Shown: positions 1-33,800, counted from the first letter of the stretch. The stretch: DNA of 37,730 nucleotides from an archaeon (GCA_020052735.1 JAGVON010000067.1:1-37730); one strand, 5' to 3'. Numbers and translations: made by a program. Notes: generated from the sequence alone by a model not told the origin.

Positions 1-561
1 AAGATGCACACTTCGCGCAGGGATGCATTCCAATCGGTGAATGTTCCGCCGCTGGCTAAAGTGGATTACAGGAGCGGGCTGATAGAGCCATATATGAAAT
101 ATAAGGAAAGGGGCGGGAAGCTGAAGTTTGACAATAGGGTAAATGAGAACGTTGCGATGGTTTATACGTATCCGGGGATACATCCGGAATTCGTGGACAA
201 ATTGTCGGATTATGATGGGATAGTTATTGTAGGGACCGGAATAGGGCACGTGCCCACCAACCCCTTCGGGGACAAATTGGCGAAGAGGATAACCCCGAAC
301 CTTAAGGCGCTCGTGGATTCCGGAATACCTGTTGCATTTGCATCCCAGTGCATATTTGGGCGCATAAACATGGATATGTATGCGGCGGGAAGGATGCTGC
401 AGGATGCGGGGGTGTTCGGGCATCTGATGGACTGGACTCCGGAAACGGCTTATGCGAAGATGTGCTGGGTGCTTGGGCATGAGAAGAAAATGGAGAAAGT
501 GAAGGAAGAGATGATGAGGAATATCGCTGGCGAGATTACGGAGAGGAGCGAAGTGCTATGA
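1..561 (+). CDS. gatD: Glu-tRNA(Gln) amidotransferase subunit D, C-terminal part (5' end lies outside the window)
   Basis: The reading frame is open to the window edge. It carries an asparaginase-type C-terminal domain (…YDGIVIVGTGIGHVP…, …SGIPVAFASQC…). Its stop overlaps the gatE start in ATGA (558-561), the usual archaeal gatD-gatE coupling. Confidence 0.8.
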   Translation, partial: KMHTSRRDAFQSVNVPPLAKVDYRSGLIEPYMKYKERGGKLKFDNRVNENVAMVYTYPGIHPEFVDKLSDYDGIVIVGTGIGHVPTNPFGDKLAKRITPNLKALVDSGIPVAFASQCIFGRINMDMYAAGRMLQDAGVFGHLMDWTPETAYAKMCWVLGHEKKMEKVKEEMMRNIAGEITERSEVL

Positions 562-11456: not shown

Positions 11457-11479
11457 GTAATATTGCTGTTATCTGGTTA

Positions 11480-11553: not shown

Positions 11554-11557
11554 TATC

Positions 11558-11562: not shown

Positions 11563-11587
11563 AATTACTAGAGAAGATTTTGGGGGT

Positions 11588-16863: not shown

Positions 16864-17433
16864 TCATATCTGTTTTACCGCGATTACTCCCGCCTGCGTT
16901 TTGAAGAATTTGTAGCCCGCCCTCATGAGCACCCTTTCGGTTTTGGTGCCCCTCTGGGCGACTATCTCGTCCAGGTTGCCGTCCGGGTTAAGGGGCGTCG
17001 TGAGGGTGACGGCGAACTGGAACTCATGGGCCCTCCCCTCCATCTCGCGGTGGTCCACCAAGAGTTCGCGCAGCCCCTTCCCCTCATATGGGAGGAGGAC
17101 GGCATCGTCCTCAAGGAAAATGGCATTAGTATAGCCGGTTTCCAGCTGGAGATTTGTAGGGTTATATGCGGTGCCCCATGCGAGCCCCACGGCGACGAGC
17201 ATCCTGCCAACATATGCGCCGTAGCTCATGTTGCGCTTCAGGACTTCCTTCACCTCGTCCTCGGTGACCGCGAAGAGGCACTTCCTCATTATGTTGGTGA
17301 CCTCCTCCGCGTCTTCGGGGGTGAGGCGCTTTATCTCCGCCTCTTCCATGTCTATGGGTGAGCGCACGCGCATCTTGGGGGATGCCTTCTCCTCCTTGTT
17401 CTCTTCAATTATGGCGCTCTTGAAGTCGCTCAT
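16864..17433 (-). CDS. Putative GNAT-like acetyltransferase
   Basis: I trimmed the track ORF to the ATG at 17433 (MSDFKSAIIE…), because the longer form would overlap the upstream Zn-ribbon gene. …AIFLEDDAVLLPYEGKGLRELLV… resembles GNAT motif A. The functional call is weak. Confidence 0.45.
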   Translation of the reverse strand: MSDFKSAIIEENKEEKASPKMRVRSPIDMEEAEIKRLTPEDAEEVTNIMRKCLFAVTEDEVKEVLKRNMSYGAYVGRMLVAVGLAWGTAYNPTNLQLETGYTNAIFLEDDAVLLPYEGKGLRELLVDHREMEGRAHEFQFAVTLTTPLNPDGNLDEIVAQRGTKTERVLMRAGYKFFKTQAGVIAVKQI

Positions 17434-17494
17434 CAAATGGATAATGCGAAGGAGGAGTTTTAATCTATTGCGATGGGGGCTGGGTGCGGGATCC

Positions 17495-17830
17495 TTACAT
17501 GAACCTGGTGCCGCACACCGGGCATTTGGTATAAAGAGTGTCCATCTCATATCCGCAGATGGGGCACCTCCACACCTGCTTCTTCGCGCGGGCAATTTCG
17601 GCCTCAAAATCATAGTCCCCTTTCACGCATTTCTTGGCGTCCAGCTCGTTCAGCTCGCCGCACTTGGGGCATTTCTTCCTGAACATGGACTTTATGCGCA
17701 CCCCGCAGGAGGGGCAGCGCTCCATGTCCAGCGTGACCTTTGCGCCGCAGGAGGGGCACTTGTAGTCCTTGTCCGCAAGCGTGGATTTCTTCTTTGAAAG
17801 CCCCTGCGTTATCGCGTCTAATAATCCCAT
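17495..17830 (-). CDS. Multi-zinc-ribbon protein
   Basis: 111 aa with five CPxC pairs (CPSC, CPSC, CPKC, CPIC, CPVC) arranged as about three Zn ribbons. Its start overlaps the stop of the upstream secreted-protein gene by 13 nt. Confidence 0.7.
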   Translation of the reverse strand: MGLLDAITQGLSKKKSTLADKDYKCPSCGAKVTLDMERCPSCGVRIKSMFRKKCPKCGELNELDAKKCVKGDYDFEAEIARAKKQVWRCPICGYEMDTLYTKCPVCGTRFM

Positions 17831-18837
17831 CTATACACCACGAGGGCGAGCGGAAGGAGGGCTGCGAGCACGAATGTGGACGGGCAGAAGGGCTTGGAGC
17901 CGTTTGTGCCGGTGTTCCCGGCCCCGGGGGAATCCGTTCCCGTGCCTGTATCCACTGTGACCGGGACCTCTCCTGCCTCAACATCCTCAACCTGCGCCCC
18001 GAGGCACTGGGAGGACATCGCGCTGTTGAGCGCGGCAAGGCTCGGCTCGTAGTTGCCGCCGCGGACCGCGGTCTTGAGCGCGGCTATCTGCGTGGCGACG
18101 TTGCCGGAGTTGCACACGCGGGAGTTTGCGAGGTCCTCCGCGTTCTTTATCTCCGCAAGCGCGGCTGTGCACGCTGGCGCGTCCTCATTTATGGAACGGA
18201 CGGTGTTTATCGCGCCCTCAACGAGCATCCTTGCGCCGTCCACCTGGCAGTCCGTGAGCAGGGCCGCGGATTCCCCCTCAATCCCTATGAGGGAGTCCCT
18301 GTCCGCCTTAAGCTTGCAACAGGTTGAGCCGCCGGGGCCGCAGAGGGAGAGCGGCTGCACCGAGGCGTACTCCTCAAGGAAAACCTCGGTCTTGTTCGCG
18401 ACTATGAGCTCCTTCGCGGTCGGGAAATGGTTGAGCGGGACTTCAAAGATGGCCTCGTAGGTGGTTGCGCCCTGCGCCATCGTCACCTTCGCTATCTCAA
18501 GGGATTCCACCTCCTCGCCCCTGCCTCCCAGGTAGATCGGGATGCGCACGTTGCACGTCTTGCCGAACTCAAGGACCGGGCACTCCGTATCAACCAGCGC
18601 CCACTCGCCGCTCGTGAAATTCTTGTAATAGAAATATGCGATTGTGCGCTCGCCGAACGGGTTGTTCACCCATATCCCGAGCGTCACGTACTCCGGGCCG
18701 TCCCCGCCCGCGTCGCAGTTATGGACGATGACGTCCGTGGACACGGCCTGGGAGTTTATCGTGCTGAGCTCGGGCTCAAAATCCTCCGAAAAAACAAAAC
18801 CTGAAACCAATAGCAACGCCAATAGGACGGCTTTCAT
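17818..18837 (-). CDS. Secreted, C-terminally anchored Cys-containing surface protein (unknown family)
   Basis: It has a signal peptide (MKAVLLALLLVSGFVFSE). N-x-S/T sequons are present. A Thr/Gly-rich linker (TVDTGTGTDSPGAGNTGTNG) precedes a terminal TM helix (FVLAALLPLALVVY). Confidence 0.7.
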   Translation of the reverse strand: MKAVLLALLLVSGFVFSEDFEPELSTINSQAVSTDVIVHNCDAGGDGPEYVTLGIWVNNPFGERTIAYFYYKNFTSGEWALVDTECPVLEFGKTCNVRIPIYLGGRGEEVESLEIAKVTMAQGATTYEAIFEVPLNHFPTAKELIVANKTEVFLEEYASVQPLSLCGPGGSTCCKLKADRDSLIGIEGESAALLTDCQVDGARMLVEGAINTVRSINEDAPACTAALAEIKNAEDLANSRVCNSGNVATQIAALKTAVRGGNYEPSLAALNSAMSSQCLGAQVEDVEAGEVPVTVDTGTGTDSPGAGNTGTNGSKPFCPSTFVLAALLPLALVVYRWDY

Positions 18838-18856
18838 GATGGGGATTTGCAGGAAG

Positions 18857-18866
18857 TATTTATATA
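18857..18866. promoter_or_regulatory. Single TATA box shared by two divergent transcription units
   Basis: TATTTATATA sits in a 50-nt spacer. It is centred about 25 nt from the minus-strand ATG at 18837 and about 26 nt from the plus-strand ATG at 18888. Confidence 0.5.
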
Positions 18867-18887
18867 CTTTACAGAAGAGTGGAAAAG

Positions 18888-20171
18888 ATGCGGGGTTGGC
18901 TGTTCGCGTTCGTACTGCTTGGGCTAGCCTTCGCTGCTGCCCCCGAAGTGCACCTGCCTAACCTGGACCCGTTTGAGAACCCGCTGCTCATCGGGGCGAT
19001 GATTCTTCTGGCGGTCTCGTTTTCCGCGCTGGCATACGCCGTGTCCACCGCCATACAAAACCCCTCCGCAATCGCCTGGAGCAAGGACATGGTGAGGGAA
19101 ACCATAGCGGGCGTGATAATAGTCGCAATAGTGTATGGGGCTGCGGTCACCGCGAACGGGATGATAGTGGGCATGACCGGGTACGGAAGCCTTACCGAAG
19201 TGGGCTCGGGGCCGACCGAACTCGGCTCGGCCGCCCTTGACCCGCTTCTTGGGGACCTGGAGATGGTCTACGGGAAGGTCGCAGAGGCGTATTTCTCCGT
19301 GGCGGTGCAGCAGGGCACCTCCATGAGCGTCACGTTCTCCGTGCCCCCTGTAAAATTCTTCTTCCTGCAGCCGGCGATATATTACGCGAGGGACATGATG
19401 CCGTATTACGGGATGGCGCCCATGCTGCAGTCGCTAACCCAGAGCTCCTACCAGCTCACGATACAGATGCTGAGCCTGAAGATGGTGAAGGTTTTCCTGG
19501 TGTATATCGGCGCGGTGGTGCCCGGCTTCCTGCTCCCGCTCGGCTTCGTGTTCAGGATTTTCCCGCTCACCAAGAAGGCGGGCGACACGCTGATAGCCCT
19601 GAGCCTCGGGGGCCTGTTCATGCTGCCGGCGTCCCTCATAGTGGTCAAGGAGATGCGGGACCTGGCCGGCTTCGGGAACGCGGGGAGCGCGGTCGGCTTC
19701 GTGAGGACCGAGAAATTCTACGATAACGTGGAGCCGACGCTGTTCTCGCAGCAAAGCGCGGCGCTGGTCAGCGGGCTGTGCCAGAACACCGCGGTAAAAG
19801 TGATATTCGGGTTCGGGGAGATGTTCTGGGGGATCCTCTACGCGCTCATAATGCTGCTGATGCAGAACTATGATTTCTTCGGGAATTTCAACACCTTCGT
19901 GAGCCAGATATGGCCATGGATAATATACGCGCTGCAGATGCTTTATGCGACCGTGCTCACCGCGATAGCGGAAAGCGCCGACTCGGGGGCCATGTATGAC
20001 CGGACGATACAGCCCATAGTGCAGTACCTGTTCCCTGCGGTCAGCGAGATAACCGCCTTCTCCATCATTTCCATAATCATGATCGCGGTGATAACATACG
20101 GCGGGACAAGGGCGGTCTCAACCGCGCTGGGCGGCGAGTACTCATTCGCCGGCATAACGAGGATGGTATGA
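18888..20171 (+). CDS. Polytopic membrane protein, paralog A of a six-member family (unknown function)
   Basis: It has a signal-like N-terminus and then TM1, which ends in ALAYA. The post-TM1 motif is NPSAIAWSKDMVRE. The core motif is LPLGFVFRIFPLTKKAGD (19533-19586). The C-terminal tail is LGGEYSFAGITRMV. I preferred the ATG at 18888 over the track's GTG at 18879. Confidence 0.8.
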   Translation: MRGWLFAFVLLGLAFAAAPEVHLPNLDPFENPLLIGAMILLAVSFSALAYAVSTAIQNPSAIAWSKDMVRETIAGVIIVAIVYGAAVTANGMIVGMTGYGSLTEVGSGPTELGSAALDPLLGDLEMVYGKVAEAYFSVAVQQGTSMSVTFSVPPVKFFFLQPAIYYARDMMPYYGMAPMLQSLTQSSYQLTIQMLSLKMVKVFLVYIGAVVPGFLLPLGFVFRIFPLTKKAGDTLIALSLGGLFMLPASLIVVKEMRDLAGFGNAGSAVGFVRTEKFYDNVEPTLFSQQSAALVSGLCQNTAVKVIFGFGEMFWGILYALIMLLMQNYDFFGNFNTFVSQIWPWIIYALQMLYATVLTAIAESADSGAMYDRTIQPIVQYLFPAVSEITAFSIISIIMIAVITYGGTRAVSTALGGEYSFAGITRMV

Positions 20172-21049
20172 TGAGGGGAATTGCGATTATCATGGCTCTC
20201 GTCTCCTTTTCCTCGGCCGGCTGCGGCATAATGGACACGGACGCCAACGTGGCGTTCACGCAGGCGCTCCCGATCATAGGCGCGGCGATCGCGCTTTCCA
20301 TCGCAGTGGCGGCGCTCGCCTACATGGCGGGCAGTTTCATGAGGAACCCCAACCTGCTCGTTTTCAGCAAGGACCAGATATTCCACACGTTCGTTTCTGT
20401 GCTCCTTGTTATCTCAATAGAGGGGATATTCTATGGGACGTGCATGTTCGCCAGCAGCGCGGCCGGCAGCGACCTGCAGTCCGCTTCCCTCAATTACATG
20501 CGGGAACTGCGGGTGGACGGCGGCCAGATGCTCGCCCAGATAATGAAACGCTCAATTGAGTATAAGTTTGAGGCAGCGTATTATACGGCATACCAGGTCC
20601 CGTACATGGGAGGGGAGGCCTATTGGTGGGAGGCATACAACAACGCATACGCCCGCAACCTGGAGATGCTGTTTGACTTCGTGATGGTGGGGTATGTCAG
20701 CGCGGGCGTGCAGTACAACCTCCTCGGGATGCTGCCGCAGATTGCGCTGGGCGTGATGGTGCCGATGGGGCTCCTGCTGCGCTGCATCCCTAAGGCGAGG
20801 GAGGCGGGAAACATGGTGATGGCGCTCGCCCTTGCGCTTTATGTCGTGATTCCGTTCTGCTACGCGGTCGCATCAACCATGAGGGAGACGGAGGTGCCGT
20901 GGTTCACCGGAGCGCCTGACGACACGGGCATCTCTTTTGAGGACGCGGGGCTGTACCTGTTCCAGACAATATTCCTGCCGAACCTCGCCTTGGTCGTGTT
21001 CGCGACCGCGGTGGGCGGGCTGATGAAGGTGGCTAAGGTGATACCATGA
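20168..21049 (+). CDS. Polytopic membrane protein, paralog B (shortest member)
   Basis: It overlaps A in ATGA. It has a lipobox-like SSAGC, then AALAYMAGSFMRNPNLLVFSKDQ. The core motif is VPMGLLLRCIPKAREAGN (20759-20812). Confidence 0.8.
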   Translation: MMRGIAIIMALVSFSSAGCGIMDTDANVAFTQALPIIGAAIALSIAVAALAYMAGSFMRNPNLLVFSKDQIFHTFVSVLLVISIEGIFYGTCMFASSAAGSDLQSASLNYMRELRVDGGQMLAQIMKRSIEYKFEAAYYTAYQVPYMGGEAYWWEAYNNAYARNLEMLFDFVMVGYVSAGVQYNLLGMLPQIALGVMVPMGLLLRCIPKAREAGNMVMALALALYVVIPFCYAVASTMRETEVPWFTGAPDDTGISFEDAGLYLFQTIFLPNLALVVFATAVGGLMKVAKVIP

Positions 21050-23337
21050 GGGCTGCACGCATATTCCTGCTCACATTCGCATTCCTCCTTGCCGCGGCCT
21101 TCGCGCAGGGCAGCGCGGGGGAGATACTCGCAGGCGTGCAGGAGCAGCCCGGGCTGCTCGGCAGCATAGCAAAGGACTGGCAGGTCTATACTGTGGCAGT
21201 GATGCTGCTGATGGCGGGGCTTGTGGCGCTCGCGTATGCGATAGCGAACTCGTTCTCGCTGCCCGACCTGAGGGCATGGGCGGACGTGGAGCTGGGGGAG
21301 ATATTCGCCAGCGCGCTCCTGCTGATGTTCATAATAGGGATAATATCGTTCATAGACGTGAGCGCCGCAGGCATACTCGGCCCGAGCTTCCCGAGCTCCT
21401 GCGAAAAGCCGGGCTTCTGCCCCGCGAACATCGCCTCGGACTACCTGGACAGCTACCTGAAGGCCGCGAATTCCGCATACAGGACAACGATGGTCAACAG
21501 CATAGACACCGCGAACGACGCGTTCGCGGGCAGCACGGTCGGCATACAGGACCTTATATACGGCTACCTCACGTACAGGTTCAGGGACAACCCCGAGAAG
21601 ATGATACAGGTGGAGATGTACGACCAGGTCCTGCAAAACCTCTCCGCAGTGCTGGCCTCGCTCGGGATGCAGAAGTTCATGCTGAAGTTCATGACATTCA
21701 GCGTAGCGCCCGTTGCGATATTCCTCGGCATTGTGCTGCGCTCTTTCTTCCTCACGCGCAAGATGGGCGGCCTCCTGCTTGCGTTCGGGCTGGGCTTCCT
21801 TGTGGTATACCCCCTCACTTATGCGCTGGCGTGGTACACGCTGGATGCGGCGATTTACGGGGCGCAGAAGGGCCCGAGCGGTACGCTGAACCCCTGCCCG
21901 AAAGTGTGCCTGCCGTTCTCCAAGGTGGTTGACCTTTCGGAAACGCCGCTCGTGGAGGTGCCCATGGAAACGGTGAGGGAGGACTTCCATGGCCAGTGCA
22001 TGGCTGAGCTGGAGAGCGACGGCATAGGCGAGACGGGCCGCTCAAACACCTGCATGGACGCATGCAGGGATGATGTGGATTCAACAGGGCGCTCGGATAG
22101 CTGCATGGACGGATGCACCGCAGGGATAGATTCCACGGGCAGGAGCGTACCGTGCATGGACGGCTGCATGGGGCAGTACTTCTTCAACTGCCAGGCAAGG
22201 TGCGCGGAACAATGCACCGAGGCGGGCTATGAGATGCCCGCGGCGGAGTTCCCGGACCCCGCGGTTGTCGCCAGGTGGGAGGAATGCATGGACCCGTGCA
22301 TGGAAGCGGAGAACTGCGACGCGACTGGGGTGGAAAGGACATCTTATTGCCAGGCAAACGAATGCCCGGTCGTGATAGGGGAGCTGGCTAGCGGGGTGGA
22401 ATACTGCCAGGCAACGGAGTGCGGCGTGCTGCCAGGATACACGGGCGAAGAAACGGCGTACTGCGAAGGGCAGTGCACCCCCCTTGAAGGGTTCGGGGGC
22501 AGCAGCGAGGAGTATTGCGACCATGAAACGGATGGGATGGTGGCACGGCTGGGGAGAACGGGCGGGGTGGCGGTGGGGAGCGGGGCGGATTACCACTCAT
22601 ACGGGTATTGCCCTGTGGACCCGTGCGGGTTCCCGATACCCTACCAGAAAAAGGAGTGCCTCGGATACACCGGAACCCCTAACATATGCAACACAAGGCC
22701 GTTCCAGCCCGACGACCCGGCATATGCGATGATGGACGCGAGCGAACTGGTGGACGGGTGCCCCGCGGAATGCAGGACGCTTGCGCCGATGGCGCCTGGC
22801 GCTGAATGCTTCAACCGGAAGAGCATACGGCAGGATGACGGGACGTACAAATACGAGCCGCTATGCCCGTCGCAATGCATGTGGATAACCACGGGCGGGG
22901 AGACGGACCGGACGTGCCCGGACGAATGCAGGGAATTCTATCCGGCACACCCGCAGGAGCTCTGGGACGCGAAGGCCTCGGACCAGACCTGCGTGTACAT
23001 AATACCTGATGTTGTTTTTGACGAGCCGGACACGTGCTCGCAGTGCGCGTTCGTTGCGGAGAAGGGGCTCACGATGGAGCCCGCGATGATATGGGACTGC
23101 ACCGCGTTCTGCGGCGCACCGAGTTCAACGGTGATGGGGCAGGACCCGGCCACGATGACGAACAACATAGGCGGGATGCAGGGGCCGACTGATGTCATAG
23201 CGGTGAGCAAGCTGATGGTGCCTGCCTTCGTGCTCCCGATTTTCTGCCTTGCGGTGACGCTGATGTTCGTGATGTCGCTTTCGCCCATGCTTGGCGGCGA
23301 CATAGACATACCTGGGATGATGAGGATGATGCAATGA
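21046..23337 (+). CDS. Polytopic membrane protein, paralog C, with a roughly 400-aa Cys-rich ectodomain insertion
   Basis: It overlaps B in ATGA. It has VALAYAIANSF…LRAWADVELGE. The core motif is IFLGIVLRSFFLTRKMGG (21718-21771). After the core hairpin comes a Cys-rich insert (about 21892-23115). The terminal TM helix is followed by the tail LGGDIDIPGMMRMMQ. Confidence 0.85.
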   Translation: MRAARIFLLTFAFLLAAAFAQGSAGEILAGVQEQPGLLGSIAKDWQVYTVAVMLLMAGLVALAYAIANSFSLPDLRAWADVELGEIFASALLLMFIIGIISFIDVSAAGILGPSFPSSCEKPGFCPANIASDYLDSYLKAANSAYRTTMVNSIDTANDAFAGSTVGIQDLIYGYLTYRFRDNPEKMIQVEMYDQVLQNLSAVLASLGMQKFMLKFMTFSVAPVAIFLGIVLRSFFLTRKMGGLLLAFGLGFLVVYPLTYALAWYTLDAAIYGAQKGPSGTLNPCPKVCLPFSKVVDLSETPLVEVPMETVREDFHGQCMAELESDGIGETGRSNTCMDACRDDVDSTGRSDSCMDGCTAGIDSTGRSVPCMDGCMGQYFFNCQARCAEQCTEAGYEMPAAEFPDPAVVARWEECMDPCMEAENCDATGVERTSYCQANECPVVIGELASGVEYCQATECGVLPGYTGEETAYCEGQCTPLEGFGGSSEEYCDHETDGMVARLGRTGGVAVGSGADYHSYGYCPVDPCGFPIPYQKKECLGYTGTPNICNTRPFQPDDPAYAMMDASELVDGCPAECRTLAPMAPGAECFNRKSIRQDDGTYKYEPLCPSQCMWITTGGETDRTCPDECREFYPAHPQELWDAKASDQTCVYIIPDVVFDEPDTCSQCAFVAEKGLTMEPAMIWDCTAFCGAPSSTVMGQDPATMTNNIGGMQGPTDVIAVSKLMVPAFVLPIFCLAVTLMFVMSLSPMLGGDIDIPGMMRMMQ
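22033..22167 (+). repeat. In-frame 51-nt (17-aa) tandem repeat inside paralog C
   Basis: TGRSNTCMDAC, TGRSDSCMDGC and TGRSVPCMDGC start at aa 330, 347 and 364, an exact 17-aa period. At nucleotide level each unit is ACxGGxxGxxxxxxxxxxTGCATGGACGxxTGC. Confidence 0.8.
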
Positions 23338-24404
23338 GGCAAACTGGACGGCTGTTGCTGTTGCTGGCGCTCCTTTCGCTCTCCTTCGCGGCCGGCGAGT
23401 CCCCGGACTGGGTTCCAATTGCGCTGCTCGCCGCCTTCACCGGGCTCGGCGTGCTTGTGATATTCTACCTCATCAGCTATGTTGTTGAGGCGGACCAGAT
23501 GAGGTCCATGGCCATTTCCGAGATGTGGCAGGTCGTCATAACCGCGGTGATGATCGCAGGGTTGATCGGGGCGCAGGCGCTGGCCACGGAGTTCGGCGCG
23601 GGGATGGCAGGCGATTTCGGCGCAGAGCCTGGCGACACGCAGCTGGATTTCGCAGTGAAGGTCACCCAGGCGACCGTTGAGTACCAGTGGGGCACCCTGA
23701 TGGATTATACAAACAATGTAGTGCTGCCGATGGGCGACCTCGCGTCCCTCTCCGGGAACTGCTGGCTGTTCGGGGTGGCATTCACATATTCAGGATGCGC
23801 GAGCATAAACGTGCCCTTCTCCTCAGCGTCCCTCGCGGCGAGGACCATGGCGATGGCGATACTGGCGCTGAACTCGCAGCTGGTGCTTCTGAAATTGGCG
23901 GGCAGCTTCTTCTTCCCGGTGCTGCTGCCGGTGGGGCTGTTCATGCGCACTTTCCACGTTACTAGGGGCACCGGGGGCTTCCTCATCGCGTTCGCCGTGG
24001 CGTTTTATTTCGTTTATCCCCTTGCAACGGTGCTCACGAAAGGGATGGCGGACATGGTCCCCCTCTCCTCAACCGGCGCCTCCTACCCTGGCATAGACCA
24101 GGTGTACGCGGACGAGACATGGGAATTCAGCAACGTTTACACATTCACGGTGCCGGCGGAATGCGACCCGTTCAAGACGTATGATTACCCGGAGACGGAC
24201 GAGTTTGAGGGATTCGGATACACGCAGAACCAGGTGAACAACCTGCTGAACGAAAACCTGATGGACCCGCTGCTGTTCATCTTCATGATAGAAGGGATAT
24301 TCAGCCCCGCGCTGAGCGTGCTGATTACGCTAGCGGTGCTGCGGCCCCTGACAAGGGCATTCGGGACCGAGGTTGACGTTTCGGCCCTAGGGAGGGTGTC
24401 TTAG
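23334..24404 (+). CDS. Polytopic membrane protein, paralog D
   Basis: It overlaps C in ATGA. The core motif is LPVGLFMRTFHVTRGTGG (23925-23978). The tail is FGTEVDVSALGRVS. Confidence 0.8.
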   Translation: MRQTGRLLLLLALLSLSFAAGESPDWVPIALLAAFTGLGVLVIFYLISYVVEADQMRSMAISEMWQVVITAVMIAGLIGAQALATEFGAGMAGDFGAEPGDTQLDFAVKVTQATVEYQWGTLMDYTNNVVLPMGDLASLSGNCWLFGVAFTYSGCASINVPFSSASLAARTMAMAILALNSQLVLLKLAGSFFFPVLLPVGLFMRTFHVTRGTGGFLIAFAVAFYFVYPLATVLTKGMADMVPLSSTGASYPGIDQVYADETWEFSNVYTFTVPAECDPFKTYDYPETDEFEGFGYTQNQVNNLLNENLMDPLLFIFMIEGIFSPALSVLITLAVLRPLTRAFGTEVDVSALGRVS

Positions 24405-25556
24405 ATGGTGTGCGCGGACATAAGCTGGCTGTATTCCCTTTCCGTGCTTTCGCTTGGGGTCACCCTAGTGGTCCTGGGCTTGGCGTACGCGCTGGGGCAG
24501 CTCCTCAGCAACCCCCAGTTCAACGTATGGGCAAAGACGGAGATGTTCCAGGTGTTCATTTCGTTCTTCCTGGTCCTGCTCGTGCTCTTCATGAGCGGCT
24601 CAATGTGCCACTTTAAGTATGCGGACCTTGCCGGGCTGGGCCCGGCAAGCAGCAACCCGCTGGACCTCTCCGCAAACCAGTACGCATACACGCATCCGGA
24701 AATCCTCCCGGAGGACAATATGATAAATGCGTCTGGGAAATACCTCGCGAACGTAGCGTATTTCATAAACACCGAAATGAGGGCGGCACGCGCCCTGTAC
24801 GGGATTTCGGACGAGGCGTCAAGGTATTCGCGCACCCCGTGCATGCCTGCCGCGACATTCTGCCTGTACGGGACCAGCGGATACACCGTGAGGCCGTACT
24901 CCGGGCTGAGCAGCTGGTCGCAGATACTCGGGTTCTCGCTCTACACCGACACCGCCTCATACCTGACCGTCCTCATACAGATGGCTCTGCTCGCGTTCAT
25001 ATCCGGGGGAGGGATAATGGCGTACCTGCCGCTTGCGATAATACTGCGCTCGCTCCCGTTCATGAGGCAGCTCGGGGGCGGATTGCTGGCGATATGCATA
25101 GCCCTGTTCATCATCTACCCTGCGCTGCTCACCGTGGAGTCCCTGTTCTGGAACCCATACCAGATGATTGGGGACGGCTGGGGCACGCTTGTGGATGCGG
25201 CGAACAGCATGGGCAGGGGATTCTCGTATGTGAGCGCGGGGGCGTATGCGGAGACCATGGCCGCGGCGCTTCTCCTGGCGGGCGCTCTTCTGGACCTGGC
25301 CGCGATAATAGCCGTGGCTGTTTCGGCTGGGTTTGTGAGCGCGGTGCTCGCGATAGTAAGCGCGGCGGGCGGCCAGTGGACGCTGGACACGTTCAATGCG
25401 GCGGTGCAGGTGAGCATGCAGGCGTCTTCCATATCCTTCTTAAGCGCGACGTTCCTCCTTTCGCTGAACATAATAGCCATAGGCGCGTCCGCACGGGAGA
25501 TTGGAAGGCTGTTGGGGCAGGAAGTAGACCTGAGCAGGCTTATGCAGGTGTTGTGA
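24405..25556 (+). CDS. Polytopic membrane protein, paralog E
   Basis: Its ATG directly abuts the TAG of D. It has LGLAYALGQLLSNPQFNVWAKTEMFQ. The core motif is LPLAIILRSLPFMRQLGG (25026-25079). The tail is LGQEVDLSRLMQVL. It has no signal-like prefix. Confidence 0.8.
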   Translation: MVCADISWLYSLSVLSLGVTLVVLGLAYALGQLLSNPQFNVWAKTEMFQVFISFFLVLLVLFMSGSMCHFKYADLAGLGPASSNPLDLSANQYAYTHPEILPEDNMINASGKYLANVAYFINTEMRAARALYGISDEASRYSRTPCMPAATFCLYGTSGYTVRPYSGLSSWSQILGFSLYTDTASYLTVLIQMALLAFISGGGIMAYLPLAIILRSLPFMRQLGGGLLAICIALFIIYPALLTVESLFWNPYQMIGDGWGTLVDAANSMGRGFSYVSAGAYAETMAAALLLAGALLDLAAIIAVAVSAGFVSAVLAIVSAAGGQWTLDTFNAAVQVSMQASSISFLSATFLLSLNIIAIGASAREIGRLLGQEVDLSRLMQVL

Positions 25557-26564
25557 ATGGCTGCGGAGGATTTGTTCCACTGGGCGTTTGCGGGCTGGGG
25601 AGCCGGCGGGTTCTGGTTCGTAAACTGCATACTTGCGATACTCATAACCGCGGTGGTGATGGGGACCATCTACATAATCTCATACGCCTTCAACATGGGC
25701 GGGCTGAAAAGGTTCGCGGTGTCGGAGTTCTACCAGCTTGCGGCGACGGCGGTGCTGGTCATTTTCCTGGTCGTGATAGTTGAGAACGGGCAGGAGTTTT
25801 TCCTTTCCAGGTACCCCGGCGGGATAATCTGCCAGGGCGCGGTGGTGCACAACACCGTGGAGGCTGCGATGTGCCGCACCGAGGAGCGGCTCACGTATTT
25901 CAGCAACGCGTTCAATAGCATACGGGACAGCAGCGACCTCGCGGACAAGGAGCTCAGGTACTATTCATCCATGTCGCTGTTCGGCATAATATTCTGGCAG
26001 GGGAACTTTGACGCCAGCCTGCACAAGTACGTGGAGACGCAGCACGCGATAGCGTACAAGCTGGTTTCGCTGATGATTTCGCTCAACAGCCAGGTTTTCG
26101 TGCTTAAATACATATTGGAGAACATGCTGGTGTTCTTCCTTCCGCTTGGGATAGTGCTCAGGACCCTGCATTTCACGCGCGGCATAGGCGGTTTCTTCAT
26201 CGCGCTCGCGGTTTCCTTGTATTTCATCTATCCGGGCATGCTCTTCATAATGGACGCGTCATACGGCCCCGCCGCGCCGGAGATGCCGTCCTCAATATCA
26301 AACCGCGCGGACTTCTGCAACATACCTATATTCTCGGGGATGTCGCTGGGGGCGGCCACGCCAGAGGGGCAGAGCACGAGGAGCGCGGCGTCAATATCCG
26401 TAAGCACCTCCAACCTTGCGTCGTTCATGTCGCAGGTTTTCGTGAAGCTGTTTTACGACAATATGGTTGCGCTTTCAATAGCGGTCGTGGCAATGAGGTA
26501 CATGACCATGCTGCTCGGTGGGGACAGCAGCGTGTTCCTGCAGATGATGGGGAGGTGGGTGTGA
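25557..26564 (+). CDS. Polytopic membrane protein, paralog F
   Basis: Its ATG directly abuts the TGA of E. The core motif is LPLGIVLRTLHFTRGIGG (26139-26192). The tail is LGGDSSVFLQMMGRWV. Confidence 0.8.
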   Translation: MAAEDLFHWAFAGWGAGGFWFVNCILAILITAVVMGTIYIISYAFNMGGLKRFAVSEFYQLAATAVLVIFLVVIVENGQEFFLSRYPGGIICQGAVVHNTVEAAMCRTEERLTYFSNAFNSIRDSSDLADKELRYYSSMSLFGIIFWQGNFDASLHKYVETQHAIAYKLVSLMISLNSQVFVLKYILENMLVFFLPLGIVLRTLHFTRGIGGFFIALAVSLYFIYPGMLFIMDASYGPAAPEMPSSISNRADFCNIPIFSGMSLGAATPEGQSTRSAASISVSTSNLASFMSQVFVKLFYDNMVALSIAVVAMRYMTMLLGGDSSVFLQMMGRWV

Positions 26565-29500
26565 TGAAGGGCATTTTCTTTGTCTTGGCTTTCGCTTTCG
26601 TGATGGGGGCGCTCGTGCTTCCGGGCTGCGTGGCGCCGCAGCCGTCGTTCAGCAACTGCTGCATGTATGCAAACGCGAGCGAGGACGGGCGCTGCATAAC
26701 CGCAGACCGCACGGAATACGAAATAGCCGGAGAAGGGTGCGACCTCCTCAACATGGCATGCAACGTCACTCTCGGGGAGGGGGATGAGGCGCACGACGAG
26801 CTCCTGCCCATCTGCCCGAAGTCCGAGCTGCTGAAGTGCAACAGCAGCTGCGTAGGGATGTTCTGCGGCTCCTTTGAGTTTGACCCCAGGCCGCCGATAT
26901 CGCTTGACGCGGAGGACATGAACGATTCCCGCGACACCGGGGATGCGGACACGGGCCAGTTCGGGGGGACTGACAGGGGCGGGGCGAAGGGATTGTACAA
27001 CGGGGAATGCAAGTTCCTGAACATGAGCCCGGCCACCCTGCGCGCCACCGCCAACACGAACGGGGGCTTCGCGCTCAACAGCTTCAGGTTCGGCGTCGGA
27101 GATTCGTTCGCGGATTTTGACGAGGCGAGCATGTACTACCCGCTGACGGACTTCGCATGCAAGATAAACCTGCTCGGCACCACGGACAGGTATGCGAACT
27201 ACGCGATACCGAACGTGCTCGTATCCGGGAAGATATGCAGCCCTCCGAGCCCGGGGGACAACAAGTGGATGTGCATACCCTCCACTTCTCCTGGAGAGGA
27301 GCCCATCTGGGCATATTCCTATTTTGACTGCGCGACGAAGTGCCTGCTCCAGTGGCAGGGCGATTATGCGGGGATAGACCCGGACAGCGCTTACCTCACG
27401 GAGAGGAACGGGCAGGCGCTGGGGAACCCGTTTGCCTACGGGGCAGCCGCGGCATCGCCCTGGGGGCCGCTGATAAACGACAAGGACTACAAGAGCGCCG
27501 TGGTGGAAAGCTCGTTCTACGACGGATATCCGCTCGGCTATAATTATTATGGCGCGGATTTTGAGAGGGACGACCGCCAGCTGGGCCCGGACAGGGGAGG
27601 GATAGATGGGCTGCTCGCGGAGCAGGGAAGCGGGGAATTTATTGTGCAGGGCGATGTGATGGACTATTATGCGGGCGCGGAGGCGGATTTGCCTGTCATG
27701 GAGTGGGACAGCCTGCTTGAGAATTTCGTTACCGTGGAGAGGGAGCCGCACAGGATGTACAACTTCCTGCTCACTTACCATTCAGTCTATTCAAGGCAAT
27801 TCCAGGACGGGCACTACCTGGCGGACGGCTCCTGGGCGAATGGGGCGGAGTTTGAGTGCACGCTTGAGAACAACGGCTGCCTCTCGGGCTACTGCAACAT
27901 ATTTGACTACTCGCGCGGTGTTTGCCAGAACATGGACGACCTGGCGAAGGATGCTAACTGCGACTGCATGTATGATTTCAACGAGGGGGGCGTAGTGTGC
28001 ACCGGAAAGAAATTGCTGAATTCCGCTTCCTGGGACAGGTACGGGGATGCCACCTCCAACATAGAAGTGGCGACCACCCTTGCGGCGCCGATAGACCGGA
28101 TAGGGGACTCGCCCTTCACGCACACCTCCATGCCTTCCAAGGGGAGGATTGTGAAATTCAACCTGGACAACCCGGACTACATAAGCGGCATAGCCGAGGC
28201 GGACCGGAACGACATAGAGAGGCCCTTCCTCGTAATATTCCTTGGCGGCGAGGACACCGTGCCGCAATATACGGTCCGCACAGGGGAAGGGGGCACATCA
28301 TACGGGGACATGGCGGGTGAGGACGTGAGGTGGGACACCCTCACGATACCGCAGGTGCTCTCAAGGGAGAAGTGGGACGGGTGCGGCGGCGACTGCGGGA
28401 AATTCTACACCACGTTCGTGGACCAGTGCGTGCCCACTTATGAGGAAAACCCGGGGTTCTATGCGGACAGCTTCAGCGTGTGCTATGCCGGGGATAACCC
28501 GAGGACCGGATGGCGCGGCATGTACCTGGACACGGACGGGACAATCAAGGACGAAAATTGGAACTGCCAGGGGCTTGAGCTCTTCAACAGGCAACACGTG
28601 GACGGGAAGGGTGACGGCAGGTCGTGGCAGGTGTATTGCTACGCGCGGGACGAGGACGGGAACTGCGAGGCGTATTCTGTTTCCGCGCTCGTGATAAGGG
28701 GAAAGGACGTCATTTACACGGACGCGGATGGGAACGAGGCGGAGGGGCAGGCGTTCGGGAAGTGCCTGCTGGACGGGAATGGGAACCTCCTCACAAAGAC
28801 GTATGGCTACTGCGAACAGTGCGGCTACCTGACCATGGCGAAGGACAGCGTGGTCGCCCTGCCCGAGGAAAAGGACGACCCGGGATACGAGGCGCTGCGC
28901 GGAAGCGGCGGGAGCGCGCAGCGGAAGGACAATAAGTATTGCCCCTCGCTCATGATAAGCACCATTTATTCGCCTGCCGCCTCTTCGTCCATAGAAAGCG
29001 CGCCCCCTCCGCTCGTGGAATGGGAAGGGGAGGGCGTGCATCCTTCAAGCGATGATGAGGATGATTCGTACTACAGGAGCCAGTGCACGATGCCGGACGG
29101 TAGCGAAGTCGGGATGGAAGAGGCATGGCCGGACTACCTTCCGAATGCGTATTACCTGAAGTCAAAGCTGCAGGATTACCTTCAAAGGAACATAATGCCC
29201 GTGCTGTTTGCGGACGACGATGGGCTGTATCGGGCGAGGACTTCGGACAGCGAGCCGTACAAGGACAAGCCCGTGCTGCAAATCGGATTCACAGACCATT
29301 ATGAGGAGATACAGGCGGCCACGACCACTCATCCGCTGCTTGCCGAGATGTGGAGCCGAAATCCGTCCACTTCATATTTTGACAAATACGCGCAGGCAGG
29401 GGACCAGCCGTATGCGTACAGCACGCAGGGAACATATCTTGCGGATTCGGTGATGGACCTGGGCGCCGGGATAATAGTTGTGAAGAACCTGAGCGCCGAT

Positions 29501-30799
29501 TTTGTGGAGGGCTCTGGCATCACTACCGGGCTGGGGTGGAGGTCCGGTTCGGTGAGGGCAATGTGCCCCAATTGCATGGTCGCGGTGGCGGCAGGCTACG
29601 ACGAGGGGAAGGGCTCGCATGAGGAGAAGATGCGGCTGGTTTCACGGCTCTTCGGGTACGGCATGAGATATGGGTCAGGGGAGCCGCTCTGGGAGGACTA
29701 CTCATACAACATGTCCTGCGCAAACGGGGAGGTCCCGTGCCTGTATGAGCGCCTGGATTATGCGGACGTGATTGCGGTGGACTGGACGCTGGGGGGGAGG
29801 AACTCCCACTGCGACATTGAAGGCCAGGACGAAAGGTTCGCCGCGATACTGGCGGACGAGATGGAGTTCGGCTCAAAGATGCTCAGCAGGTTCGGGAAGC
29901 CGCTTGTGGTTACGGACCTCACCATAATACGGCGCGAGGGTGCGATTTATGACGAGGGGGTTAGGGACTGCTGGGACGAGGAGAGCGCGGCGAGGTTCGT
30001 TGGATACCTCGGCCAGCATACGGAAGACCTGATAAGGAGCGGCCATATCGGCATCATTTATGGGGATTGGAGCTATGGGCATTCAAGTGGCACCTCCGGC
30101 CCCACATACATAAGGACGCAGGAGAGCATAGCCGGAGGGAGCGTGGGCGGATACAGGGGCCCGCTCTACGAAGGCACCCTGTTCGCCGCAAGGGACTTCT
30201 CGGGATACGGCAGGATGATTTCATTGATAGAGGTGCCTGTGAAGGAGAGCTGCGCCTGCGTGCCATGCACATCCACGGACCCGGCGGAGATATGCAACGG
30301 CCAGTACGCGGGGAGCGGGGCGCTGTGCGAATGGGAGGGCGCGCGCGTGATGGTCAAGTGGCCAGACGACTGCATAACCGGGGATGCGTGCATGCCCGAG
30401 GGCGAGATTGCGGGATACTTCATGGACTGCACGATAGTGGCGGGCGGGCAGGAAACCTCGTTCAGCGCGGATGGTGCCGATGTCGCGGCTAACCCCGAGC
30501 TTTACAAACAGATGATAGCGTCCATAAGCAACACGGTGGAAAGGCCGTGCTTCATGGGAAAGACATACGGAAAAACAGAGATAACGCGGTTCCTCTCCCA
30601 CCCCGTGCTGTTCAGGACGGACGGGAACCTGAGCTATACATGCAACCCGCTTTCCGCGGCAGAGGGGGCGCTTTGCGGCCCCACGCCCAGCCTGGACCTA
30701 GGGCAGATGGACTGCACGCTGAGGCCGAAGATGGGCGGCATTGTTCCCGGGGGCGGCATTCCGTTCCCTGACCTGCCCAGCGGGCCGATAGGAGGATAA
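26564..30799 (+). CDS. Giant (about 1411 aa) Cys-rich secreted or lipoprotein-like protein, unknown family
   Basis: The ATG at 26564 shares one base with the TGA of F (TGATG); the track lists an upstream GTG at 26555. The signal peptide MKGIFFVLAFAFVMGALVLPGC has a lipobox-like Cys. I counted about 50 Cys by eye. There are many N-x-S/T sequons and no further TM helix. Confidence 0.8.
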   Translation: MKGIFFVLAFAFVMGALVLPGCVAPQPSFSNCCMYANASEDGRCITADRTEYEIAGEGCDLLNMACNVTLGEGDEAHDELLPICPKSELLKCNSSCVGMFCGSFEFDPRPPISLDAEDMNDSRDTGDADTGQFGGTDRGGAKGLYNGECKFLNMSPATLRATANTNGGFALNSFRFGVGDSFADFDEASMYYPLTDFACKINLLGTTDRYANYAIPNVLVSGKICSPPSPGDNKWMCIPSTSPGEEPIWAYSYFDCATKCLLQWQGDYAGIDPDSAYLTERNGQALGNPFAYGAAAASPWGPLINDKDYKSAVVESSFYDGYPLGYNYYGADFERDDRQLGPDRGGIDGLLAEQGSGEFIVQGDVMDYYAGAEADLPVMEWDSLLENFVTVEREPHRMYNFLLTYHSVYSRQFQDGHYLADGSWANGAEFECTLENNGCLSGYCNIFDYSRGVCQNMDDLAKDANCDCMYDFNEGGVVCTGKKLLNSASWDRYGDATSNIEVATTLAAPIDRIGDSPFTHTSMPSKGRIVKFNLDNPDYISGIAEADRNDIERPFLVIFLGGEDTVPQYTVRTGEGGTSYGDMAGEDVRWDTLTIPQVLSREKWDGCGGDCGKFYTTFVDQCVPTYEENPGFYADSFSVCYAGDNPRTGWRGMYLDTDGTIKDENWNCQGLELFNRQHVDGKGDGRSWQVYCYARDEDGNCEAYSVSALVIRGKDVIYTDADGNEAEGQAFGKCLLDGNGNLLTKTYGYCEQCGYLTMAKDSVVALPEEKDDPGYEALRGSGGSAQRKDNKYCPSLMISTIYSPAASSSIESAPPPLVEWEGEGVHPSSDDEDDSYYRSQCTMPDGSEVGMEEAWPDYLPNAYYLKSKLQDYLQRNIMPVLFADDDGLYRARTSDSEPYKDKPVLQIGFTDHYEEIQAATTTHPLLAEMWSRNPSTSYFDKYAQAGDQPYAYSTQGTYLADSVMDLGAGIIVVKNLSADFVEGSGITTGLGWRSGSVRAMCPNCMVAVAAGYDEGKGSHEEKMRLVSRLFGYGMRYGSGEPLWEDYSYNMSCANGEVPCLYERLDYADVIAVDWTLGGRNSHCDIEGQDERFAAILADEMEFGSKMLSRFGKPLVVTDLTIIRREGAIYDEGVRDCWDEESAARFVGYLGQHTEDLIRSGHIGIIYGDWSYGHSSGTSGPTYIRTQESIAGGSVGGYRGPLYEGTLFAARDFSGYGRMISLIEVPVKESCACVPCTSTDPAEICNGQYAGSGALCEWEGARVMVKWPDDCITGDACMPEGEIAGYFMDCTIVAGGQETSFSADGADVAANPELYKQMIASISNTVERPCFMGKTYGKTEITRFLSHPVLFRTDGNLSYTCNPLSAAEGALCGPTPSLDLGQMDCTLRPKMGGIVPGGGIPFPDLPSGPIGG

Positions 30800-30831: not shown

Positions 30832-33800
30832 ATGAGGAAGGGTTTGCCAGCCGTGGTTATTCTGGTTGCGGCAATCCTTTCCATGGTTCCGGGCATCGTT
30901 TGGGGGGAATATGGAGGAGGCCCTGCGCCCGGCATCTCAAATCCGCTCATCCGCGTGGACATAACGGGGGTGCATGTGATAAGCCCGCAGGAGGTCTGCC
31001 CTTCGTGCAGCATATTCACTACGCAGCCTTTTATGGCGCCGTCCATAAACGAGGAAGAGGAAACCGTCTCCGTGAGCATGGGGGTCATAGATGCGGGCGG
31101 CCTGAGCCCGGTGGAGGGCGCCACGATTTTCGCATATGTGCAGAGGCAGGATGGGAGCAATGCGCAGGCACCCTGCAGGGTATACACCAATGAGAACGGG
31201 AGCGCAAAAATCAGCTACAACCCGGAGGAATGCCGGGATGGGTGCACGACGAAGTTCTTCTTCTGCTGCGCAGACCCGGTCGCGCTGGCATGCGTGCTGG
31301 AGCCGTGCCTCGGCCAGCCGGTTGCCGCATACACGGACATACCCGCATGCGCCGGATACGGTGGGGAATGGCCATCCCCTGCAACCATAGATGGGGAGGA
31401 GGTACAGCTATATCCCACGCTTGAGACTGCATTCATCCCGCCCCAGACGGTGCTGCCGGAATTTGACTACACGTTCACCTTATGCTTCCCGCTGCTGGTG
31501 ATATTCGGGTTCCTGGGGGCTGCGATGTACGCTTCGGGGAGGGACCCGTTCGCGATGTTTTCATTCTATACCCCCAGGTTCACGAGGGGGGCCGAGAGGC
31601 CGATACAGGGAAGGGGATACACCATACCCGGCTCCTCAATAATAAACGTCGCGATGAAGGCGACCGACCTTGCGACCGGTAAGACAACCGCGAAGGAGAT
31701 GTTCACCAGTTCCATGGAGCAGAGCTCCATGATAGCGAAAACAAAGGGCGCCACGGGCGAGCTTGGCTCAGGCACGGGCAGCAGGGCTGCGGCTGGCAGG
31801 GCAGGCGCTGCGGCAGAAGAAACCAGCAGGACCTCCGCAGACCGCATGGCGGCGGGAGGAGGTTCCGGTGCGGTGCTGGGCATGAGCCTCGGGGTGTCAG
31901 AACAGATGATGCGCCCCGGCGCGGCTGGGGTCGGGGTGGGGACCGCGCTTCTTGCGCTGCTGGGGATAATGCTTAGGTTCTCAAACGCTCCCTGGCTTAC
32001 GGGCGGGCTGGCCCAGAAATTGATCGGCATTGCTGAAGCGTGGCAGGCGGAACGCGTCGCGAGCTATGCGCAGACTTATGCGGCGCCAATATCCTCAACC
32101 GTTCAGACGCAGTTTGACTCCGAGGGATATGTGGCAAAACTCACTTACAGGGACCCGCAAAGCGGCCAAACGATTGTTGTGGAGGGGCGGGAGGCATGCG
32201 CAGCGTTCATAGATTCCGTTACGACGGGCCTGTATTTATCCTCCCAGGCAGGAAGCAATGCTGCAACCGAACTCATGAGCAACTTCAACGAAAGGATTGC
32301 AAACCTCCAGCACCCCACAGCAGGGGCGAGGGAGCTGCTCAGGGTGGAAGTGGTCAGGGCTGAGGGGCCTGCCGAGGTCCTGGATGCACTGGGAACCCTG
32401 GCTGACCTGAACTCCTCGGCTGCAAAGAGGCGCGAGGCGCTGGAGATTGTCGCCGGCTCCGACCAGGTTTCGGAAGATGTGAAGATAGCCGCCTTCGTTG
32501 CAGCCACGGAAGGCATGACGTACCACCAGTTTGCGCAGTTCGTTGGCGCGGAAGGAACGGCCGCGAACAGGATATTTTTGGAGCTCGTCTCCAACTCCGC
32601 GGCGCTCAATGAGAGGCTGGACGGGAAGATTGACGGGAACATGCTTGGGGCGCTTGGGGCCGCCGCGGAGCGGCTTGAGCAGCTTAACGGAAGCAGGAGG
32701 GAGGGGCAGGCGGACAGCCTGGGCTTGGGCACGAGTGTCGTTGCAATAAGAAGCGGCATTGGTGAATGCCACGGGGATGCGGATACGTTCGTATTCAGGC
32801 AGGGCACCGAGGAGGCCGCCGCGAAGATGGCTGCTATGGGATTGTCCGGTGCTGCGCTGGACACGCGCATAAGTTTTGATGAAATAGGGGGGCAGCGGGT
32901 TGTTCTCGGCCACATACAGGATGACGAAGTGCGCGCGGAGATTGAAGCAGCCACGGACAGCGAGGGAAATATAGACATATCAAAGCTAAGCGGAAAGGCG
33001 AGAAGCGAGTTGGGAGACGTGATTAACTACCAGCTCAGGGAGGCGGTGGTCAGCGAGTACAATACAGCATATTCCGTGCAGCAGGAGGCGGATTTCAAGA
33101 ACGGGGATTCGGACGAAGCGAAGGCGGTGAGGGCCTTCCAGGATGCGCTGGGGAACTACGAGGCGGCTTCGCAAAGCTCCTATTCCCTTATTGACAGGTA
33201 CGTGACCGGGCCTGCTATGGCTGAGGTTGGCGGGTTGCTGGATAGCAATCCGAATCCTGTGGATAGCCAAGGAAGGTTGACAACGATGGTGCTGCCCGAG
33301 CACCTTGCAGCGGATGACGTGAAGAGGATAATGCAGGACCATGGCGTGGACCCGGAGCTGGCCAGCATAGTCGCAGGCATCAGCGGGGCGGAGGCGCAGG
33401 CGAATTTTGCAACCGGGCTTCGCGAGGGGCTGGGGTCGCTGACGATGGGGCCCGCGGAGTTTCACGGGCAGAATGCAGACAAAGCATATGGCGACATTGG
33501 CGAAGTGGACCGCCAATTGGCAGAATTCAATGCCGCTGTGCAGACGCTCCAAAACCCGGATGCAACTGCAGAAGCGAAAGAGCAGGCGAGGGGCATCGTG
33601 GCTGCGGGCGCATTGATTGTGGCGGACCACGTGCCGGATGATATGGGCAATCTAATCCCGGTAACACTGTGGGAGCATGTGCAGGGGGAGGCAAGCCGCA
33701 TCATGGGCGACCAGAATGCGAGCCAGGCGGACAAGCAGTGGGCGCAGGAGGTCAGCGGCATAAACCCGGAAACGGCGCTGAGTGACGAAAGGCAGGTGGC

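Follow-up and report, generated by a model that had tools for sequence, protein, structure and literature searches.

Six non-interchangeable membrane paralogs kept in fixed order across the Micrarchaeota: a candidate VirB6-like platform

We have analysed a 37,730-nucleotide stretch of archaeal DNA (GCA_020052735.1 JAGVON010000067.1:1-37730; hereafter the window) in which six consecutive plus-strand genes, named A to F (18879/18888 to 26564), encode what their sequences mark as ancient, non-interchangeable paralogs of a polytopic membrane protein that is specific to the phylum Micrarchaeota. We lean towards the view that A-F form a hetero-oligomeric, VirB6-like platform of an envelope machine that resembles a type IV secretion system (T4SS) or the crenarchaeal Ced system. 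The window itself reads as a chromosomal piece of a DPANN archaeon from this phylum, because archaeal housekeeping genes (GatE, SHMT, FolD, Spt5, FtsZ, CDC48 and a pelota/eRF1-like gene) flank the cluster and the nearest database relatives of the cluster genes are labelled Candidatus Micrarchaeota or Micrarchaeia. The six open reading frames (lengths in amino acids, aa) are as follows.

Paralog A: 18888..20171, plus strand; 427 aa from the ATG at 18888, or 430 aa from a GTG at 18879; core motif at nt 19533-19601; signal-like prefix; extra hydrophobic segments in region 2.
Paralog B: 20168..21049, plus strand; 293 aa, the minimal chassis; core motif at nt 20759-20827.
Paralog C: 21046..23337, plus strand; 763 aa, the chassis plus a ~465-aa acidic ectodomain; core motif at nt 21718-21786.
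Paralog D: 23334..24404, plus strand; 356 aa; core motif at nt 23925-23993.
Paralog E: 24405..25556, plus strand; 383 aa, without a signal-like prefix; core motif at nt 25026-25094.
Paralog F: 25557..26564, plus strand; 335 aa, without a signal-like prefix; core motif at nt 26139-26207.

Consecutive genes overlap by 4 bp at A/B, B/C and C/D and abut at D/E and E/F; F overlaps the next gene, G, by 10 bp, and the operon runs on past F into G and a further gene, H. This layout predicts that A-F are translationally coupled, and the overlapping stop and start codons imply that they are co-expressed. The first-pass annotation of this DNA had proposed that the six genes are paralogs sharing three collinear motifs, and the relationship is now firmly established: in hhalign comparisons of profiles that each represent one ortholog alignment per gene, built from related loci, all 15 pairs match with probabilities of 97.4-99.8% (E 1.5e-11 to 2e-30). 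BLASTP within the six also links D to F (4e-15), A to B (1e-11) and E to F (7e-9). These values lie far outside what chance would give, and the same hhalign comparison gives G and H probabilities of 1.3% or less against A-F; the idea that G and H might be further paralogs was rejected on the same values.

The shared motifs fared well under inspection. All six 23-residue strings that had been quoted for the core motif are found verbatim, at aa 195-247 of the respective proteins, and the Arg, Gly and Ala singled out within them are invariant in six of six paralogs. Numbered as in D, R205, G214 and P229 do not vary in any of 99 diverse family members, and E63 and R211 hardly vary. A signal-like prefix is present in A-D and absent from E-F, as had been read. 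The motif at the end of the first transmembrane (TM) segment is looser than first described: only its Tyr is invariant, and the NP dipeptide is found in A, B and E only.

Searched exhaustively with a family profile, 1.84 billion representative proteins (representatives at 50% clustering) yielded 2,908 that belong to the family at E<=1e-3, of which 1,855 reach E<=1e-10. Every organism-named representative comes from the Micrarchaeota, bar one that is labelled 'Marsarchaeota', and most of the best 150 can be assigned cleanly to one of the six subfamilies. At every complete locus examined there are six copies in a row, set within three cluster architectures. In loci of the window type (more than 10 at the species level), three divergent genes, U3-U2-U1, precede A-B-C-D-E-F-G-H, with one-to-one orthologs in the same order; one rearranged locus, L017, carries H upstream on the opposite strand and U2-U3 after G. 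A bare array, L023, consists of the six paralogs alone between housekeeping genes. The third type, in which the array is accompanied by an ATPase, is found in acidophilic Micrarchaeaceae and in many metagenomic loci. In distant arrays the proteins at positions 2, 3 and usually 6 best match B, C and F, and position 1 matches A in some of them; positions 4 and 5 are ambiguous in subfamily assignment. This retention of order indicates that the six-fold duplication, and the order itself, predate the Micrarchaeota radiation.

These observations bear directly on whether the six genes could be redundant copies or alternative surface-protein variants used singly, for example against viruses or for different hosts. 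We consider this highly improbable: one-to-one orthology in the window-type loci, six adjacent copies in each complete locus, divergence of the six before the phylum radiated, the co-expression implied by the overlapping codons, and the lack of any pseudogene or copy-number variation among the complete arrays all argue against it, and uphold the original proposal that the paralogs are not redundant. What can be said for such variants is that the outer loops are the least conserved parts of the proteins and that A-H are discordantly divergent between close relatives (see below), which suggests cassette exchange.

The topology of A-F was predicted from hydropathy, positive-inside counts and the helices of AlphaFold2 models. 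The loop between TM3 and TM4, which had been described as a short basic loop, does contain 14-25% Lys+Arg and is nearly free of acidic residues; the long variable loops, net acidic and with 1-8% Lys+Arg, account for nearly all of the cysteines (in C, 38 of the 41 Cys lie in the ~465-aa acidic ectodomain). From this distribution of charge and cysteine it follows that the R...TR..G loop and the C-terminal tail are cytoplasmic and that the variable parts are outside. The predicted topology thus places the N-terminus outside and the C-terminus in the cytoplasm; there are five TM segments, and a large outer loop separates TM2 from TM3. The models of D (predicted local distance difference test score, pLDDT, 83; predicted template-modelling score, pTM, 0.76) and C (pLDDT 67) agree on the helices and their order, and both place a beta-hairpin within the TM2-TM3 stalk. 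Each model starts with TM1, a tight turn, and a TM2 that extends outward as a long helix; a return helix and the beta-hairpin follow, and then a long helix that re-enters the membrane as TM3. A five-residue TM3-TM4 loop bears the invariant R...TR..G motif, and TM4, the variable region, the last TM helix and a short tail complete the chain.

Sequence conservation is distributed accordingly along this chassis. Within ortholog families the TM3-loop-TM4 unit is 60-66% identical; the C-terminal tail, the third of the originally described motifs, is real and is the best-conserved part (55-75%); and the outer loops, at 25-38%, are the least conserved. Together with the charge and cysteine counts, these values bear out the earlier picture of a conserved chassis with diversified outer loops. 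The accompanying notion of variable ectodomains holds for the acidic, Cys-bearing outer loops, and needs amending for A and E, in which region 2 contains extra hydrophobic segments in place of the soluble loop of the other paralogs. Six distinct co-translated subunits, constant in number and kept in order wherever subfamily assignment is clear, with a conserved loop and tail and a variable exterior, are what is expected of an obligate hetero-oligomer. Some large family members from other genomes carry CARDB or Ig-like domains before or inside the chassis (P0099, P0137, and L022 15026-17542); such additions are consistent with adhesive outer domains.

Scans of A-F against Pfam, NCBIfam and PHROGs returned no significant family, and no MCE domain. 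A pattern nevertheless emerged when the 99 diverse members were compared with 18,950 NCBIfam models: just two families were matched more than once, CedE (7 of 99, best 4.2e-5) and CedA (6 of 99, best 4.8e-5). The aligned region is shown for one member, D, and is TM3-loop-TM4 in both matches. A second set of 36 array members from other loci again gave CedA as its only recurrent family (2 of 36, best 1e-3), and the single matches included a conjugal pilin-like protein and TcpD. As a control, a Pfam scan of the same 99 members gave singletons only, and no TrbL/VirB6. Two further matches, of E to T4SS_pilin (E 0.037) and of C to VirB2 (E 0.06), are weak and of the hydrophobic-hairpin kind. CedA and CedE are VirB6 homologs with five to six TM segments that are needed for DNA transfer in Sulfolobales (PMC11868833).

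The structural comparison tends in the same direction. Among the 50 Foldseek hits displayed for the C model, the lowest root-mean-square deviation (7.9 A) and the highest target template-modelling score (TM-score; 0.33) both belong to the VirB6 homolog TrwI (7o3v_F), in a match that is not significant (E 2.2); a second non-significant match, to 8rt9_F, has a target TM-score of 0.30. TTYH and ASCT2, which had the best Foldseek E-values (0.2-0.3), were dismissed on TM-scores of 0.06-0.17. The topology of Agrobacterium tumefaciens VirB6, reportedly worked out by Jakubowski et al. in 2004, equals that predicted for A-F.

The gene neighbourhood in other lineages supplies another line of evidence. 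Clusters of the ATPase type begin with one or two 115-130-aa proteins with two TM segments, a 243-aa polytopic protein where present, and the six paralogs; these are followed by a pair of paralogous 277-aa proteins with two TM segments and a cytoplasmic domain apiece, an ATPase of ~500 aa, a 102-aa protein and a 129-aa zinc-ribbon protein with a TM segment, and the cluster ends with a 243-aa protein, a ~50-aa protein and a ~806-aa protein. In L066 and L069, arrays that best match subfamilies A, B, C and F are contiguous with this ATPase module. The ATPase itself matches DUF87 (1.5e-17), AAA_10 and the TraG P-loop in Pfam, and CedD (9e-20), the VirB4-like CD1110 (1.5e-18), CedB (4e-16) and HerA in NCBIfam; in a PDB search its residues 58-327 align to the VirB4 C-terminal domain 4ag5. 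By these matches it belongs to the HerA/VirB4 superfamily, whose members are normally hexameric. Its partners give fainter signals: one of the 277-aa proteins has a weak match (E 0.03) to a mycoplasma VirB4, in the N-terminal region of the latter, and a 130-aa protein, with the expected two-TM hairpin, weakly matches TrbC/VirB2 (E 0.015).

Taken together, four weak but concordant lines (recurrent profile matches, neighbourhood, topology and structure) point to VirB6/CedA, and on balance we favour the idea that the A-F family is a very distant relative of these proteins, or at least their functional counterpart. The family would then work like VirB6, and may descend from it; we do not file it as a member. 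We hypothesize that the paralogs, one copy of each, would come together as a hetero-oligomeric platform or ring, in the simplest case a heterohexamer beneath a hexameric motor, and would serve an ATP-driven apparatus that spans the envelope as its membrane channel or its site of assembly. A motor or adaptors would dock on the cytoplasmic loops and tails, and the variable outer domains, along with G and H, would contact the exterior (for a symbiont, presumably the host cell). We infer this stoichiometry, which is plausible, from the fixed number of six, the equimolar-looking operon and the link, in relatives, to a normally hexameric ATPase superfamily.

Several results weigh against this assignment to a VirB6-like platform. 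The CedA and CedE scores all fall well short of the curated cut-offs, the family profile has no match to A. fabrum VirB6 in hhalign, and PDB sequence searches with two family profiles return nothing. Foldseek, a method that is weak on all-helical membrane proteins, finds no significant match for either the D or the C model; the TM-score of 0.33 falls below any fold-level threshold, and VirB6 is absent among the 50 hits shown for D. Then there is the oligomeric state: VirB6 in the solved bacterial systems, R388 included, is reportedly a homopentamer, not a heterohexamer (so Mace et al. in 2022). The HerA/VirB4 superfamily, moreover, also holds ATPases that have no part in secretion. Finally, at E<=1 none of the ATPase, the 277-aa adaptor and the pilin-like gene is found in the window, and no homology could be detected between the accessory genes of the ATPase type and G, H or U1-U3. 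None of these last five contains a Walker A motif.

These points lend some weight to another possibility, less probable in our judgement, namely that A-F make up a membrane complex that is specific to the Micrarchaeota and has no relation to VirB6 and T4SSs, such as a scaffold that anchors or exports G and H, or an S-layer anchor; what the ATPase module of other lineages powers would in that case be a machine of a new kind. No Pfam or PDB entry is matched significantly by the family, the array is coupled in the window lineage to G and H and not to the ATPase, the ATPase-type accessory proteins of 102, 129, 243 and ~806 aa match no known T4SS component, and S-layer anchoring in Micrarchaeota is undescribed (bioRxiv 10.1101/2021.04.28.441871). 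It is harder for an unrelated complex to explain why CedA and CedE are the sole recurrent profile matches in two separate samples, why the best named relatives of the ATPase are CedD, VirB4 and CedB, why pilin-like two-TM genes stand ahead of the arrays, and why A-F share their predicted topology with VirB6; furthermore, no S-layer domain is present in G or H. The S-layer protein of Ca. Micrarchaeum harzensis is a different, ~101-kDa PF05123 protein (bioRxiv 10.1101/2021.04.28.441871).

The absence of a motor gene from the window also bears on the suggestion, which we regard as improbable, that A-F are a solute or lipid uptake channel for host metabolites, with no transfer of macromolecules and no dedicated motor in the window lineage. 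Micrarchaeota do rely on hosts for metabolites (PMC5498576, PMC8975820), the window has no ATPase, and there are conserved intramembrane residues (Glu in TM2; Arg, Gly and Pro around TM3-TM4), all of which would suit a channel. Yet A-F have no similarity to transporter families, their long outward helical stalks and giant partner proteins are unlike known permeases, and elsewhere the array is linked to an ATPase of the VirB4/HerA type, which acts on DNA or protein and not on small solutes.

The array and the ATPase module need not travel together: the module occurs without the array in L037, L039, L045 and L085-L101, so the two are separable. They also change at different rates, in that the six paralogs are ~25-50% identical over distances at which the ATPase keeps 56-88%. 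The ATPase (L021 12937-14454; L027-L108) is unusually conserved, with this same 56-88% identity across the phylum, Ca. Mancarchaeum acidiphilum included. In L089, L092 and L094 the module (277 aa, ATPase, 102, 129-141, 243-260 and ~900 aa) sits with FtsZ on one side and a CDC48-like gene on the other; the FtsZ-CDC48 interval of the window (11400-11587) contains only a tRNA-Arg (11480-11553). Among the best 120 ATPase matches there is no contig from a window-type genome. CDC48 was itself weighed as a candidate motor and rejected: it adjoins many window-type loci, and is absent beside the rearranged L017 and beside ATPase-type clusters. We treat its adjacency as conserved synteny only.

Comparison with known systems helps to place the VirB6-like platform that we favour. 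CedA and CedE (NF041796, NF053657) are polytopic, with five to six TM segments, and similar in size to the core of A-F; the Ced system also has a VirB4/HerA-type ATPase (CedB/CedD) and VirB2-like pilins (PMC11868833), and the same kinds of gene flank the arrays in other Micrarchaeota. In contrast, Ced has one or two such proteins as against six distinct ones in the Micrarchaeota array, its proteins have no long outer stalk, variable ectodomains or conserved C-terminal tail, and the system is crenarchaeal and UV-induced, whereas the window itself has neither ATPase nor pilin. The bacterial VirB6/TrbL proteins (A. tumefaciens VirB6, R388 TrwI; 7o3v, 8rt9) share the predicted topology of A-F and form an oligomeric platform in the inner membrane, beneath a pilus or stalk, to which we liken the proposed role of A-F; they are matched neither by hhalign nor by PDB profile search, and the structural match is non-significant.

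Host-dependent bacteria with reduced genomes offer a further parallel. The Rickettsiales rvh system has five adjacent VirB6 genes (RvhB6a-e), and Anaplasma/Ehrlichia have virB6-1..4; these paralogs combine a short conserved core with divergent, sometimes huge, flanking domains, and the remaining T4SS genes are scattered in the genome (PMC2653234, PMC7648143). They differ from A-F in being bacterial, in having recognisable VirB6/TrbL domains and an outer-membrane complex, and in numbering four or five copies. We read the likeness as an analogy, not as shared ancestry of the duplication. The clearest precedent for a hexamer lies in the Mce operons, which, like A-F, comprise six paralogous genes in fixed order. 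One copy each of mycobacterial Mce1A-F is said to form a heterohexameric, envelope-spanning assembly (Chen et al., 2023, reportedly). Mce proteins have a single TM segment and an MCE domain, adopt an unrelated fold and serve as a lipid transporter with an ABC ATPase, unlike A-F, and no sequence or structural similarity between the two was found.

Among the DPANN archaea, the giant 'SPEARE' proteins of Nanohaloarchaeota carry VirB4/TraG-like ATPase domains and are proposed to act on the host (PMC10266531). Here too, a DPANN lineage joins T4SS-type ATPases to giant surface proteins; the proteins and their architecture are different, no six-paralog membrane array has been reported there, and G and H in the window have no P-loop. 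Chromosomal T4SSs have also been noted in Patescibacteria (PMC12102498). In the literature searched on Micrarchaeota and DPANN, including the Mia14 and Ca. Micrarchaeum harzensis genome papers, the array and its associated ATPase cluster are not described. The phylum-specific array of six paralogs is, in our assessment, real and conserved, and its role as a VirB6-like platform is one that we infer.

The genes that accompany A-F in the window are these.

G: 26555..30799, plus strand; 1414 aa with 53 Cys; a single hydrophobic anchor or signal at the N-terminus.
H: 30832..34908, plus strand; 1358 aa with an N-terminal signal or anchor and two further TM segments.
U1: 17818..18837, minus strand; 339 aa, secreted, with a C-terminal TM anchor; divergent from A.
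U2: 17495..17830, minus strand; 111 aa, a multi-zinc-ribbon protein.
U3: 16864..17433, minus strand; 189 aa, cytoplasmic; its start is Met61 of the listed 249-aa ORF (open reading frame) 16864-17613, the residue at which its orthologs begin.
Divergent U1/A intergenic region: 18838..18887, no strand; 50 bp, with a TTTATATA box at 18858-18865.

G follows F in all window-type loci. H, conserved with the cluster, has three hydrophobic segments in all, a small Cys-containing outer domain, and an acidic, Ala/Glu/Gln-rich C-terminal region of ~970 aa that, from its composition, would be helical. Neither protein has a match in Pfam, NCBIfam, PHROGs or PDB sequence searches; the possibility that they are S-layer proteins was rejected on the lack of an S-layer domain (Pfam). 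Our suggestions for G and H, an adhesin or conduit, or a cytoplasmic scaffold, are guesses. Residues 245-257 of H (31564-31602) read 'FYTPRFTRGAERP' after a TM segment at 214-232 and resemble the F-x-TR-x-G cytoplasmic loop of A-F; despite this resemblance, hhalign finds no homology between H and A-F.

U1 occurs at those window-type loci for which upstream sequence is available. U2 and U3 are linked in all loci, and both stay with the cluster even in the rearranged L017, in which they are directly followed by a 590-aa protein (L017 17772-19544) that bears a Lon protease C-terminal domain. Pfam, NCBIfam and PHROGs scans assign no significant family to U1, U2 or U3. In the U1/A intergenic region, TTTATATA sits ~23 nt upstream of the ATG at 18888; on the archaeal TATA consensus and the usual spacing it is likely to be the TATA box of A, and this spacing favours the ATG at 18888 over the GTG at 18879 as the start of A. 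Between CDC48 and U3 the window also contains a gene for an 832-aa N6/N4 DNA methyltransferase (14346-16844, plus strand), in a stretch with a GC content of 0.43 against ~0.58; CDC48 directly adjoins U3 in L008, L009 and L018, so the methyltransferase gene looks like a recent insertion. A TnpB/IS605 OrfB-type gene (5109-6251, plus strand), with OrfB_IS605 and a Cas12f-like TNB domain, lies in a lower-GC region.

Comparison of the window with its closest relatives reveals a sharp discordance between the block A-H and its flank. L009 and L018 are 90-95% identical to the window at the amino-acid level in CDC48, U3 and U2, and 76% in U1, and only 33-55% in A-H; in L008 the flanks are 84-87% identical, yet A-F are closer (49-70%). 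Nucleotide identity between the window and L018 drops from 73-91% to ~50% near 19130, within A, so that the transition lies in the region of ~18837-19200. It follows that A-H have either been exchanged between lineages as a cassette or are evolving very fast, as the sequences would appear to say; we take the discordance as a further sign of a role in surface or host interaction. A more speculative extension of the VirB6-like platform, which we hold only tentatively, is that A-F are a VirB6-derived heterohexameric translocon which, with G and H, would be a hallmark organelle of the Micrarchaeota and make up the contact or bridge that exchanges DNA, proteins or metabolites with the host, A-H being swapped as a host-specificity cassette.

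The contacts between DPANN archaea and their hosts have been seen by cryo-tomography as tubes and bridges, for which the symbiont-side genes are not known (PMC11329633). The array is a concrete candidate for such an apparatus, because it occurs throughout the sampled Micrarchaeota lineages and is phylum-specific, encodes membrane and surface proteins whose outer face evolves fast, and is joined in many lineages to a highly conserved VirB4-type motor. Structural biology would gain defined targets in cultivated Micrarchaeota, for example Ca. Mancarchaeum, whose ATPase belongs to the family. If A-F do make one ring, they would show how a homomeric T4SS platform evolves into an obligate hetero-oligomer; and if the proposed translocon is real, it would be the first asymmetric T4SS membrane core built from six different subunits, and a molecular handle on the connections between DPANN archaea and their hosts.

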